Assembly: GCA_035283785.1 (NCBI GenBank) | Contig: DATETG010000005.1 | Coordinates: forward strand, 2,902 to 66,901 | DNA from: Candidatus Nanoarchaeia archaeon | Lineage (GTDB): Archaea > Nanobdellota > Nanobdellia > Pacearchaeales > GW2011-AR1 | Reading direction: 5' to 3' | Length of the DNA stretch: 64,000 nt | In this document: positions 52,858 through 54,313 of the stretch, piece after piece | Layout of the letters: each line of letters starts with the position of its first letter | Numbering within the stretch: position 1 is the first letter of the stretch | Made by a program: the position numbers and the translations under genes | Notes under the pieces: generated by a model | The model's database searches: none | What the model saw: only the letters and a program-made list of their open reading frames with translations | What the model was told of the DNA's origin: nothing

Positions 52858-53454
52858 ATGTTCTGGTGGTTTTCTGGGAAAAAAGAGGTCGAACGAGTCA
52901 GGGAAGATGTTAAGGAAAGTTTTGAGTTAGTAAAAAAAGACATGAATGATCTTGGAGAATGGATTAAGCATCTTAACTCCCACAAGGAAATGCATAAAAA
53001 AGATATCGAGAGTATAAGGGATATTTTATCGTCGATAAAGAAAGACGTTGATGAAATTAAAAATTCATTTGAAAGTCAAGAAAGTACTGAAACACCTGTG
53101 GTGTTTAAAACACCGAAACGGGTGTTTAAAAAACAAACAGCTGTTTATGCTGTTCAAACAGCTGTTCAAACAGCTGTTCAAACACCCAAATTAGAACATT
53201 TCTCAATAACAGAAAGAGCGATTCTCTGGATTTTGTTAAACACAGACATGAAGCTGAGTTATGAAGATATTGCATCAATACTCGGAAAAGAGAGATCAAC
53301 AATAAGAGGTCAAATTAATACCATAAAACAGAAAAGTGAGGGCTTAATAATGGAAACTTCGGAGAAAAATAATAAGAAAAGAGTGTTTATACCTGAAAAT
53401 ATGAAAGAAAAACTCCTCAAAAAGGCAAAAGTGAGAGTTAAAAAAAGGAAATAA
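52858..53454 (+). CDS. coiled-coil plus C-terminal winged-HTH DNA-binding protein, with a (TAVQ)n low-complexity linker
   Basis: N-terminal heptad-rich region. The linker AVYAVQTAVQTAVQT is encoded by a 12-nt tandem palindrome. The C-terminus ERAILWILLNTDMKLSYEDIASILGKERSTIRGQINTIKQK is HTH-like. Confidence 0.45.
   Translation: MFWWFSGKKEVERVREDVKESFELVKKDMNDLGEWIKHLNSHKEMHKKDIESIRDILSSIKKDVDEIKNSFESQESTETPVVFKTPKRVFKKQTAVYAVQTAVQTAVQTPKLEHFSITERAILWILLNTDMKLSYEDIASILGKERSTIRGQINTIKQKSEGLIMETSEKNNKKRVFIPENMKEKLLKKAKVRVKKRK
53136..53183. repeat. tandem 12-nt repeat CAAACAGCTGTT (about 3 copies), each containing the perfect palindrome AACAGCTGTT
   Basis: Direct reading at 53136-53183. It is in frame within CDS 52858..53454. 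Confidence 0.7.
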
Positions 53455-53527
53455 ACTTAAAACATTAAGAGAAATGAGGGAAAATTTAGTAGAATTAGCA
53501 GGAGAATTAAAAATAGAGGGATCTTAT

Positions 53528-53566
53528 GTGGGTAAAAATACTTTCTTTTATCTTATTTTTACCCAC
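53528..53566. terminator. 11-bp perfect inverted repeat (GTGGGTAAAAA ... TTTTTACCCAC) between convergent genes; a likely bidirectional terminator hairpin flanked by T/A runs
   Basis: Arms at 53528-53538 and 53556-53566 with a 17-nt spacer. It lies between the stops of 52858..53454(+) and 53630..54313(-). Confidence 0.45.
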
Positions 53567-53629
53567 TACAAGTTATAATCTTCTTCAGATGCACACAAAA
53601 CAAAAGTTATTCGGTGAACAAGAAAACTA

Positions 53630-54313
53630 TTACAAATCTCTTAGTTTGAGGATAGTAGAAAGAGGAGTTATTTTCTTTAGTGAGGGTGGAATTGAAAGAA
53701 GTACTTGCTTATTATTCACCTTTGACTTATCAATAGAAATCCCTTTTTTAATCAATTTACCGACGTAATCACGAATTGAGCTTTCTGTAAGATTTAATCT
53801 CTGAGAAACAGACTTGTAATCTACCTCAAAACCCGTTTCTTCCATCTGGTATATTGTTGAAAAAACTAAAAATTCTTTTTCTGTAAGTCTTTTAAATTTG
53901 AGCCGGATCTCTTTTTTCATGTAATCTAAAGAATCAAGTATCTCGGCCGCCTTCTCAATCGAGTTTTTTCTTAAATCGTTAGGGACACTTGTCTGTCTGT
54001 CTGTCTGTCTGTCTGTCTGTCTGTCTGTTGGAACCCCATCATTTCCTGTGGAAATAGACAAATTTTGCCCGTTTAGGGGCCTAAAAGAGGAGTTATCTGT
54101 TGGAAAATTTGTTGGATCTGTCTGAAAATCCGACCGGTTTGTTGAATCTTGCTTAATTAAAAGAGGTAGAGATTTCAGCATATTTTTAGTGATTACGGAT
54201 AATTCCTGATCCCTCTCCACTAAATTTTTCTTCAAAGACAAAATCTCTGAATTAAGAAAATCCATGTCTTCCTTTATCTTCTTAAACGCATCCCTTATTT
54301 TTTCTTCATCCAT
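53630..54313 (-). CDS. coiled-coil plus C-terminal winged-HTH protein, paralogous in architecture to 52858..53454, with a (TDRQ)3 linker encoded by a (TCTG)9 microsatellite
   Basis: N-terminal heptad region (EILSLKKNLVERDQELSVI). A Thr/Asp/Asn-rich linker with TDRQTDRQTDRQT. The C-terminus LTEKEFLVFSTIYQMEETGFEVDYKSVSQRLNLTESSIRDYVGKLIKKG is wHTH, MarR/TrmB-like. Confidence 0.45.
   Translation of the reverse strand: MDEEKIRDAFKKIKEDMDFLNSEILSLKKNLVERDQELSVITKNMLKSLPLLIKQDSTNRSDFQTDPTNFPTDNSSFRPLNGQNLSISTGNDGVPTDRQTDRQTDRQTSVPNDLRKNSIEKAAEILDSLDYMKKEIRLKFKRLTEKEFLVFSTIYQMEETGFEVDYKSVSQRLNLTESSIRDYVGKLIKKGISIDKSKVNNKQVLLSIPPSLKKITPLSTILKLRDL
53991..54026. repeat. perfect tetranucleotide microsatellite (TCTG)9
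   Basis: Direct reading: nine uninterrupted TCTG units. It lies inside CDS 53630..54313. Confidence 0.9.

Follow-up and report, generated by a model that had tools for sequence, protein, structure and literature searches.

Do the perfect DNA repeats inside two convergent genes beside a nanoarchaeal replication origin serve the encoded proteins, or are they kept for the sake of the DNA itself? We addressed this question in a window of 64,000 nt (Candidatus Nanoarchaeia archaeon, assembly GCA_035283785.1, contig DATETG010000005.1, positions 2,902 to 66,901), in which two genes, A and B, each carry such a repeat in the part that codes for a linker. A preliminary description of this sequence had taken the repeats for low-complexity, length-variable peptide linkers of plasmid- or virus-type regulators. 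To our knowledge, the replication origins of DPANN/Nanoarchaeota are essentially undescribed, and since these organisms are uncultured, they are accessible mainly through predictions from sequence. We propose, with a probability of roughly 0.6, that the linker repeats of A and B would be cis-acting origin/operator sites embedded in linker-coding DNA.

Results

Proteins A and B

A and B are genuine protein-coding genes, since in their structured domains the amino acids are conserved while synonymous sites vary at the background level. Gene A (52858..53454, plus strand) encodes a 198-aa protein built of a long N-terminal helix, a disordered linker, a winged HTH (wHTH) and a K/R tail, and gene B (53630..54313, minus strand) encodes a 227-aa protein of the same design; the family is uncharacterised in both cases. 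The AlphaFold2 model of A comprises a helix (residues 3-75), a disordered stretch (76-111, with pLDDT<50 at 88-107) and an H-H-H-beta-beta domain (117-188); that of B comprises a helix (2-53), a disordered stretch (54-112), a second helix (113-141) and the winged HTH (145-226). Foldseek related both C-termini to the MarR-type winged-helix regulators MepR (3eco), ST1710 (2yr2/3gfi) and AbfR, with E values of ~1e-4 to 1e-3, and together with the modelled secondary structure this assigns the winged-HTH fold of the MarR family to both proteins. At the level of sequence, only sub-threshold matches to assorted HTH models were obtained, and Pfam, NCBIfam, PHROGs and PDB sequence searches returned no family above threshold for A or B. 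The Sta1 family was a weak sequence match to the A/B-type wHTH. The tripartite design proposed in the preliminary description is thus borne out; of its N-terminal heptad-repeat coiled coils, the long helix is recovered in each model, and the coiled coil itself would be a deduction from that one helix per protein.

Direct BLASTP of A against B reached an E value of only 0.054, and paralogy had to be assessed by profile comparison domain by domain. The N-terminal helices aligned with an hhalign probability of 94% (E 1.6e-7) and have the motif K-x-a-F-x-x-V-K-x-D-I in common, and the two HTH domains aligned with an E value of 1.3e-5. As judged from these profiles, it is plausible that A and B are distant paralogs, as had been suggested. 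The best 150 matches listed from a profile search of 1.84 billion representatives were all strong B-family members, with no A-family cross-match among them; the distant tail lies beyond these 150.

Chromosomal setting and the origin region

Synteny comparison showed that A(+) and B(-) form a convergent pair in 84 of 85 loci, within a block ordered as A, then B-wHTH-136aa-PRC, oriC and Cdc6-PolD, which is kept wherever the flank allows. The ORF list, family search and synteny place three genes 5' of B on the same (minus) strand (54314..55473): an 89-aa wHTH (54314-54583), the stop codon of which abuts the ATG of B, a 136-aa protein without family (54684-55094) and a PRC-barrel protein (55216-55473). 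A spacer of 334-1078 nt across loci separates the PRC gene from the Cdc6-DP1 genes, i.e., the Orc1/Cdc6 initiator (56220..57458, plus strand) and, directly after it, PolD DP1 (57459-59069), which is followed by an HD protein and DP2 (60020-63478). A and B are conserved helix-linker-winged-HTH proteins of Nanoarchaeota (Woese/Pacearchaeota-type) that adjoin the chromosomal replication origin.

Three intergenic ORBs adjoin orc1/cdc6 and flank an AT-rich element in inverted orientation. One of them, TTCCACACGAAACCGCGGGGT (55596..55616, minus strand), lies on the PRC side in the same orientation as the ORB in B described below; the other two are TTCCACAGGAAACATTGGTGT (56096..56116, plus strand), ~120 nt 5' of cdc6, and TTCTATAGGAAATAAGGGTGT (56194..56214, plus strand), just 5' of the cdc6 ATG. 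The AT-rich core with tandem repeats between the oppositely oriented ORBs (55620..55800) is a putative DUE. GC skew across the window was uninformative, as it tracks gene strand with no visible origin switch.

The idea that A and B regulate as antagonists or partners, in the manner of copy-control, partition or switch proteins of plasmids or viruses, draws on their obligate convergent pairing, their dimer-type wHTH design and the iteron-like GSTGTTT arrays upstream of and inside A near the origin, as expected of such a module. However, the window carries 5S rRNA, tRNAs, Cdc6 and PolD, and the A/B gene context also occurs on contigs up to ~650 kb; the window is part of the chromosome of a Woese/Pacearchaeota-type archaeon and has no plasmid identity. 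Moreover, a plasmid tblastn gave no match, a virus-family search (PHROGs) gave no significant match, and among the genes listed for three annotated homologous loci (L001, L002 and L004) there was no ParA-type ATPase, nor any ATPase besides Cdc6. The chromosomal markers together with the absent plasmid matches rule out a plasmid setting, and we regard this explanation as very improbable, although A and B may be partner or antagonist regulators, or may have a chromosomal partition or copy-control role.

Between the stop codons of A and B lies the hairpin noted before, an inverted repeat whose 13-bp arms match perfectly around a 13-nt loop (53528..53566; arms 53528-53540 and 53554-53566; fold z = -2.0). 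It is real as a structure, and its role as a bidirectional terminator is putative; a simple bacterial-type terminator/promoter scan did not call it. The terminator scan flagged the A repeat as 'terminator-like', which is an artefact of its palindromes.

An ORB and an (ACAG)n tract inside gene B

Tandem Repeats Finder (TRF) identified perfect repeats in both linkers, a 12-nt palindromic tandem in A (score 72) and a tetranucleotide in B (score 78), as had been noticed earlier; both rank near the top of the tandem-repeat scores for the 64 kb. In B, the tract comprises TGTC x9.8 (53990..54028, 100% matches), read as (ACAG)n on the minus strand and encoding (TDRQ)n. It lies directly 3' of the G-string of a canonical ORB, ATTTCCACAGGAAATGATGGGGT (54033..54055, minus strand; consensus PMC4153887, PMC1868953), which occupies codons ~87-94 (I-S-T-G-N-D-G-V), and the constrained stretch as a whole reads TTCCAnnGGAAAT-nnn-GGGGT followed by (ACAG)n. 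The site has the mini-ORB dyad TTCCA-N-TGGAAA with its TTCC and GAA cores, and the G-string GGGGT 3-4 nt 3' of the dyad. The dyad arms and the G-string are invariant in 79/79 species with complete loci, the dyad centre being variable, and the exact TTCCANNGGAAA is present in gene B of 69 loci.

A search with the literature-derived pattern TTCCANTGGAAAYNNRGGGGT (18 specified positions) returned 28 loci at 0 mismatches, with every site in gene B; at <=1 mismatch, sites were found in gene B of 65 loci, in oriC of 3 and elsewhere in 1. The window's own B-ORB (54033-54053) has 2 mismatches to this pattern. Within the window there are 4 ORB matches vs 0.2 expected, all inside 54033-56214, and the ORB dyad density is 2.0/kb in B and 1.46/kb in oriC vs 0.021/kb elsewhere. 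As far as sequence can tell, no other site of the origin region, the oriC ORBs included, matches the archaeal ORB consensus as well as the predicted B-ORB does. The B-ORB lies 1.5 kb from the AT-rich core, is unpaired and is oriented like the ORB on its side of oriC. We know of no demonstrated role for a single ORB 1.5 kb from a DUE, even in Thermococcales, and of no binder of the (ACAG)n tract, for which no non-coding counterpart was found.

An iteron array inside gene A and its upstream copy

The constrained stretch of A is a GSTGTTYAAACA iteron/palindrome array, with G[GC]TGTT[TC] heptamers at 53100, 53121, 53140, 53149, 53161 and 53173 (53100..53184, plus strand). The last three heptamers form perfect GCTGTTCAAACA units (TRF, x3.0 at 53149-53184, 100% matches), and at their junctions arise AAACAGCTGTT(T/C) palindromes, the 12-mers joining as AACAGCTGTT. 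A non-coding copy of the array lies ~150-190 nt 5' of the ATG of A (52666..52713, plus strand), with GGTGTTT at 52666, 52685, 52695 and 52707 and AAACAGGTGTTT at 52680 and 52702. The 12-mer density is 3.15/kb in A and 1.98/kb in the 400 nt upstream of A, as against 0.01/kb elsewhere, so that the GGTGTTT motif flagged in the preliminary description proves to be a real and highly enriched element. The spacings of the coding array (9/12/21) are each a multiple of 3; those of the upstream array are 19, 10 and 12 bp in the window, with peaks at 10 and 13 bp and smaller ones near 20 and 30 across species. The upstream array and the likely TATA box are separated by ~120-170 nt, a long distance for a simple repressor.

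Further words were seen in and around A. The palindrome TTATCGTCGATAA (53026..53038, plus strand) encodes Ser58-Ser59 as TCG-TCG in 95/92% of species, and in other species its TATCGWCG word is seen again 5' of A, at ~-275 and ~-50. At the 3' end of A, AAAGTGAGAGTTA (53427..53439, plus strand; K-V-R-V) is a conserved nucleotide word, with Val192 as GTG in 99% vs a 12% background. The TGCACTTAGGTT motif showed no window-wide enrichment, being a local feature of the sequence left of A.

Constraint on nucleotides rather than amino acids

The repeats are the most conserved DNA of the locus. Relative synonymous entropy, with control genes as the reference, dropped to 0.17 in B codons 80-104, the remainder of B standing at 1.01 (p 1e-9). 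In A codons 83-116 it was 0.26, vs 0.73 in the remainder of A (p 2e-8); in four control genes, no 12-column window fell under 0.83. Rare codons are fixed (TCC, GGG and GAC at 100%, CAG at 93%), and position 3 of the repeat unit is C in 195/195 cases in B vs ~25% background and T in 247/248 in A, though the residue varies among A/G/P/T/S/N, these per-column counts being non-independent events in a sample of related species. What variation there is sits at non-synonymous positions, third positions being frozen across species. Since synonymous variation is low while amino-acid-changing positions vary, the constraint acts on the nucleotides and not on the amino acids, contrary to the view of the repeats as low-complexity peptide linkers.

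If the islands were instead short linear peptide motifs for docking or modification (Thr-rich x-x-Q-T) within disordered linkers, their likeness to ORBs and iterons would be secondary. The peptide S-x-G-N-x-G-V-x-T plus QT repeats, encoded by the ORB and its tail, is indeed kept in 145/149 divergent homologs within a hypervariable linker, other parts of which range from short to >150 extra residues (a persistence that we count for the embedded ORB as well), and the x-x-Q-T periodicity is common to both paralogs. Such a motif, however, predicts background synonymous variation and few amino-acid changes, the opposite of what is observed: the varying dyad centre changes B residue 89 among T/I/S/K/N between frozen nucleotides, these DNA words are also found outside coding sequence, both 5' of A and in oriC, and the linkers of A and B are unalignable as peptides. 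We therefore consider a peptide motif unlikely, and disfavoured as the sole explanation; strict nucleotide conservation is compatible with an extra peptide function that the island may have.

Slippage-prone SSRs, serving contingency or phase variation, or turning over neutrally with homogenisation, so as to tune linker length or switch B on and off, would also yield perfect repeats. In keeping with this, B contains a perfect 39-nt tetranucleotide tract within an ORF, the unit of which is not a multiple of 3, near-identical A relatives differ almost solely in having 2 instead of 3 units, and units within one genome tend toward one variant, e.g., GTC in all three. A, however, has 3 copies in 78/83 species, and B has 2-3 in nearly all species, which does not fit the linker-length variability assumed earlier; B keeps its reading frame in all complete loci, with close relatives all 227 aa long, and only A shows unit polymorphism, in frame at 2 vs 3, with no frame-shifting variant seen. 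The adjoining non-repetitive ORB is equally frozen, for which slippage cannot account, and this explanation appears more doubtful still.

Constraint at the level of RNA (mRNA structure, an sRNA target or an overlapping/antisense gene) was suggested by the A repeat region of the window, which folds far better than shuffles (z = -5.8). The B region, in contrast, reached only z = -0.9, RNAalifold gave -1.9 kcal/mol for A (82 species) and -0.2 kcal/mol for B (45 species) with no covariation, a hairpin formed by the ORB dyad would have a loop of 2 nt, and the motifs are also present 5' of the promoter and in oriC. A conserved RNA structure was rejected, given that the strong single-sequence fold of A is accompanied by no conserved structure or covariation across species, and so was an overlapping ORF, no alternative frame being consistently open. 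We hold a role at the RNA level to be highly unlikely.

Discussion

According to the reading that we favour, with the repeats as embedded cis-acting sites, these elements would have been placed where each protein is disordered and tolerant, and the (xVQT)3 and (DRQT)n peptides would largely be by-products of the site DNA. Which proteins bind the sites, and with what regulatory outcome, we infer as follows. The B element, a full predicted ORB extended by the (ACAG)n tract, most likely binds Orc1/Cdc6, by analogy with the Thermococcales dp1 ORB cluster, and such binding could extend the nucleoprotein domain of the origin or couple expression of the B operon to initiator occupancy. The A element, in which G[GC]TGTTYAAACA iterons form AAACAG-CTGTTT palindromes and which is duplicated ~200 bp upstream of the A start, would most likely act as a pair of operators, one 5' of the gene and one within it, for a winged-helix dimer. 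Candidate binders are A, B or the adjacent 89-aa wHTH, and the result would be autoregulation, possibly by looping.

More tentatively, and we think this possible rather than probable, A and B may be lineage-specific origin-organisers, binding the iteron and (ACAG)n arrays of their own genes and cooperating with Orc1/Cdc6 at the intragenic, highest-consensus ORB. On this view, a self-encoding 'replicator-regulator cassette' of ~3.5 kb (52.6-56.2 kb) would constitute an extended origin nucleoprotein domain, through which expression of the origin-proximal operon, including the PRC-barrel (possibly cell-division) protein, would be coupled to replication initiation in these reduced-genome archaea. 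If this were true, the tandem repeats of the peptides would be one of the rare clear instances in which selection for a DNA site dictates the sequence of a protein.

The locus supplies a precise predicted oriC that comprises an AT-rich core and three intergenic ORBs, together with a fourth ORB, the most canonical of all, within a gene, and it ties two uncharacterised, near-universal predicted DNA-binding proteins to the origin. It also offers an unusually clean dual-use coding sequence, in which an amino-acid repeat appears to exist because its DNA is a binding site. This calls for caution in annotating a 'low-complexity linker' and in using synonymous sites as neutral markers.

Like MarR-type and archaeal regulators (ST1710, MepR, AbfR), A and B possess a winged HTH of three helices and a beta-hairpin. 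Unlike in MarR, no dimerisation helices flank it, and dimerisation would come from the separate N-terminal helix of 50-75 residues, which is joined to the wHTH by a disordered linker of 35-60 residues. Auxiliary operators inside genes are familiar from lacO2 in lacZ and galOI in galE, and parS inside spo0J/parB near oriC and plasmid iterons are related arrangements. The nanoarchaeal locus resembles these in its paired sites upstream of and inside a gene, its helically phased repeats and palindromes, and its proximity to an origin, but is archaeal, has no ParA partner, and has predicted sites whose length suffices to impose a tandem repeat on the peptide.

The consensus archaeal ORB is CTTCCAGTGGAAACGAAAGGGGT, and that of Methanomassiliicoccales is GTTCCAGTGGAAATGA-AGGGGT (PMC4153887 Table 2, PMC1868953). 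Like canonical oriC ORBs, the B-ORB shows the TTCCA-N-TGGAAA dyad, a 3-4 nt spacer and GGGGT, and 28 species match all 18 positions; the long GT stretches that sometimes follow ORBs of H. volcanii are comparable to its (ACAG)n/(CTGT)n tail (PMC4153887, PMC1868953). Unlike them, it resides in coding DNA. The nearest known parallel is a cluster of ORBs within the dp1 gene of Thermococcales, an ORF that holds ORB/mini-ORB elements with 'TTCC' and 'GAA' core motifs, bound by Cdc6 (Matsunaga et al. 2007, PMC1904270). The dp1 gene of our window holds no ORB-like match; the host is the winged-HTH gene B, which lies across oriC from cdc6, and in place of a cluster there is one very canonical ORB, followed by the (ACAG)n tract, within a disordered-linker segment where it would dictate a conserved peptide, with Cdc6 binding predicted. 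In both cases, however, an ORB with TTCC/GAA cores, conserved across the order, lies within an ORF 1-2 kb from oriC, so that in Thermococcales as well as here genes are flanked by two ORB sites.

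Genes A and B and their chromosomal setting

Tandem Repeats Finder detected one 100% perfect tandem repeat in each of two convergent genes, GCTGTTCAAACA x3.0 (53149-53184) in ORF A (52858-53454, +, 198 aa) and TGTC x9.8 (53990-54028) in ORF B (53630-54313, -, 227 aa). AlphaFold2 models, with 65-66 homologs as inputs, show for A a helix (residues 3-75), a low-confidence segment (76-111) and a helix-helix-helix-strand-strand domain (117-188), and for B a helix (2-53), a low-confidence segment (54-112), another helix (113-141) and a winged HTH (145-226). Both C-terminal domains match MarR-type winged-helix regulators in Foldseek, and a perfect 13-bp inverted repeat (53528-53540/53554-53566) lies between the two stop codons. 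Hence, these data confirm the preliminary description of two convergent ORFs with a helix, a repeat-bearing linker and an HTH; the inverted repeat may serve as a terminator, and the long N-terminal helices may form a coiled coil. The suggested paralogy is plausible, albeit distant: BLASTP relates A to B merely at E 0.054, while profile-profile comparison aligns the HTH (E 1.3e-5, probability 81%) and, by domain, the N-terminal helix (A16-67 with B4-48; probability 94%, E 1.6e-7; K-x-a-F-x-x-V-K-x-D-I in common) collinearly, but yields no peptide alignment of the linkers. Database relatives number 2677 for A and 1971 for B, labeled 'Woesearchaeota', 'Pacearchaeota', 'Nanoarchaeota' or unnamed archaea; none falls into a curated family, and scanning a single genome for each species yielded relatives in 293 species.

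The preliminary description also envisaged plasmid copy-control, partition or switch proteins. The plasmid setting did not hold, given that a 5S rRNA gene and four tRNA genes lie in the window and that the homolog search revealed neither plasmid relatives nor significant virus-family matches; the pair is chromosomal and adjoins oriC. Next to B lie genes for an 89-aa winged-HTH protein (54314-54583, -; weak HrcA_DNA-bdg match, E 4.5e-5), a 136-aa protein for which no family was detected (54684-55094, -) and a PRC-barrel protein (55216-55473, -), followed by a 746-nt spacer (55474-56219), Orc1/Cdc6 (56220-57458, +), PolD DP1 (57459-59069, +), an HD protein (59059-60018, +) and PolD DP2 (60020-63478, +). 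Among 85 fetched loci (regions of about 12 kb around A and B in other species), A(+) and B(-) are convergent neighbors in 84, the remaining one being incomplete, and the order from B through the spacer to Cdc6-DP1 is repeated wherever the flank suffices. Three origin recognition boxes (ORBs; 55596-55616, -; 56096-56116, +; 56194-56214, +), each within three mismatches of the literature pattern, face opposite ways around an AT-rich core with tandem repeats (TRF arrays in 55539-55738), and a conserved mini-ORB-like TTTCACAGAAAAGTTTATAA (55504-55515, -) lies near the PRC promoter. Opposed ORBs around an AT-rich core, the classical archaeal oriC layout (PMC4010727), recur in each of the 63 species whose spacer is intact, and the spacer looks like the chromosomal oriC. 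PRC-barrel proteins (CdpB) have been implicated in archaeal cell division based on FtsZ, and the PRC-barrel gene hints at a possible link between replication and division.

Gene content to the right of A is invariant across species and changes to the left, where the window has a serine recombinase (50721-51491, -; Resolvase, E 2e-43) and two loci (L001 and L004, about 2100-4900) have tyrosine integrase, HNH and recombinase genes at the same place. The left boundary of the origin block looks variable and possibly prone to mobile elements. Elsewhere in the window, Rfam calls a 92-nt tRNA (37171-37262) without an ARAGORN report, adjoining tRNA-Leu(CAA) and the 5S rRNA (37396-37510); this call may represent an intron-containing tRNA.

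Conservation of the linker repeats

Both linker motifs, KQTAVYAVQTGVQTGVQTP (A) and ISTGNxGVPTDRQTDRQT (B), rank with the best-conserved columns of their families. The linkers had been proposed to vary in length by repeat number; A, however, has three copies in 78 of 83 species, and B two to three. Divergent B homologs range from 211 to 387 aa, with linkers that are short in some and extended by over 150 residues in others, and nonetheless 145 of 149 keep the S-x-G-N-x-G-V-x-T island. Over very short evolutionary distances the A array is not stable: relatives that are at least 97% identical have two or three units and differ in almost nothing else, as in the database relatives P0001 and P0391, which are one whole 12-nt unit (2 vs 3 AVQT) apart from the window's A and P0390, and in close relatives of B an ACA>ATA change interrupts the otherwise pure (ACAG)n tract. 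The arrays are thus unstable in the short term, although copy number is conserved in the long term.

Repeat DNA is nearly identical between species sharing just 50-70% protein identity. In a codon-column analysis with four neighboring genes as controls, relative synonymous entropy falls to 0.17 at B codons 80-104 (1.01 in the remaining B, p 1e-9) and to 0.26 at A codons 83-116 (0.73 in the remaining A, p 2e-8), the lowest 12-column window of any control gene being 0.83. Rare codons are fixed (TCC, GGG and GAC 100%, CAG 93%), and Asn in repeat units is AAC every time. Unit variation hits amino-acid-changing positions, whereas third positions are frozen: the first codon of the A unit encodes A/G/P/T/S/N with a third base T in 247 of 248 cases, and B units change at positions 1, 4 and 5 (DRQT/NQQT/DKQT/etc.), the first codon keeping a third base C in 195/195 (background ~25%). 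Variable residues with frozen third bases are the opposite of peptide-level purifying selection, and the codon columns indicate that the constraint acts on nucleotides. An unbiased count of 12-mers common to the 12-kb loci places the top words almost all within A and B.

RNA structure could impose such a constraint, and the window's A region does fold well (z -5.8), but the B region has no good fold (z -0.9), and RNAalifold gave -1.9 for A (82 species) and -0.2 kcal/mol for B (45 species) with no covariation. Nor would overlapping genes account for it, as none of the alternative frames is consistently open. Slippage or phase variation, supported solely by the finding that A is polymorphic between 2 and 3 units, would leave a frozen non-repetitive ORB in B unexplained.

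Relative synonymous entropy is also low at A codons 1-56 (52858-53025; 0.63) and B codons 58-79 (about 54077-54142; 0.24), where 95-100% of species use ACA for Thr 58, 65 and 72 in a P-T-rich segment; more DNA signals may be embedded there.

DNA elements within A and B

The frozen stretch of B reads ATTTCCACAGGAAATGATGGGGTTCC, followed by (ACAG)n. Its TTCCA/GGAAA arms and GGGG box are unchanged in 79/79 complete loci, while the two central dyad bases vary, making residue 89 T/I/S/K/N; fixed arms around a free centre mark a palindromic protein-binding site, here a putative one. Published ORBs follow the consensus CTTCCAGTGGAAACGAAAGGGGT in archaea and GTTCCAGTGGAAAC-AAA----GGGGG in euryarchaea (PMC1868953), and an individual case from Methanomassiliicoccales reads GTTCCAGTGGAAATGA-AGGGGT (PMC4153887 Table 2). 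The pattern derived from both sources, TTCCANTGGAAAYNNRGGGGT, occurred without mismatch in gene B of 28 loci and in no oriC spacer or elsewhere; counts for gene B, spacer and elsewhere were 65, 3 and 1 loci at up to one mismatch, and 78, 59 and 12 at up to three. The window has four matches at up to three mismatches (0.2 expected), the best being that in B (54033-54053, -; two mismatches), with the same orientation as the oriC ORB on that flank (55596-55616, -). The dyad TTCCANNGGAAA reaches 2.0 per kb in B and 1.46 in oriC spacers vs 0.021 in the remaining 755 kb. In H. volcanii, long GT stretches sometimes follow ORBs (PMC1868953), loosely like the (ACAG)n/(CTGT)n tail of B.

In A, G[GC]TGTT[TC] heptamers at 53100, 53121, 53140, 53149, 53161 and 53173 accompany AAACAGCTGTT(T/C) palindromes, and these words recur upstream of A as a non-coding array (52666-52713). 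With up to one mismatch, AAACAGSTGTTT matches the window 12 times (1.6 expected), all except one in these two arrays. Across species, densities per kb in the upstream 400 nt, within A and elsewhere are 1.98, 3.15 and 0.01 for GSTGTTYAAACA; 11.3 (80/82 loci), 3.5 and 0.29 for GSTGTTT; and 1.34 (about -275 and -50), 1.08 (+150) and 0.043 for TATCGWCG, whose copy within A is TTATCGTCGATAA (53026-53038). Upstream spacing peaks at 10 and 13 bp, with lesser ones near 20 and 30; within the coding array the spacings are 9, 12 and 21, each a multiple of three, consistent with a phased array fitted to the reading frame. A peptide motif may add a further layer to the linkers but can explain neither the pattern at synonymous sites nor the copies in non-coding DNA. 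At the 3' end of A, AAAGTGAGAGTTA (53427-53439; K-V-R-V) is among the locus's most widely found 12-mers, and Val192 is GTG in 99% of species (background 12%).

A TGTGAACTTAGG-type motif lies upstream of each of three minus-strand genes left of A (51506-51517, 52060-52082, 52635-52660), is partly palindromic (AACTTAGGTAACCTAAGTT, 52063-52081) and shows no enrichment in the rest of the window. Its form in other species, TGCACTTAGGTT (65 copies in 44 loci), keeps its orientation 250-1500 nt left of A; it is likely an operator for another regulator.

Possible roles and relation to known origins

By analogy with Thermococcales dp1, Orc1/Cdc6 is proposed to bind the ORB in B, which would either enlarge the origin complex to the left or make the site a roadblock or sensor for the operon of B. 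The two arrays of A, one upstream and one within the gene, would probably be bound as a pair by a winged-helix dimer (of A, of B or of the 89-aa protein) that autoregulates A, and the (xVQT)3 and (DRQT)n peptides would be tolerated by-products within a disordered linker. In a preprint from 2026 that covers complete Nanobdellota genomes, Orc1/Cdc6 serves merely for genome rotation, and term searches of the text revealed neither ORBs nor the A/B cluster. Coding-embedded ORBs are already known: in Thermococcales, an ORB/mini-ORB cluster within the dp1 ORF is Cdc6/Orc1-bound in ChIP and gel shifts (PMC1904270). Hence, the locus is a variant of a known arrangement; it differs in the host gene (B), the side of the origin, the single maximal-consensus site and the second paralog (A) with a different, duplicated iteron array. 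It also differs from dp1 in having a protein repeat apparently dictated by a DNA site.
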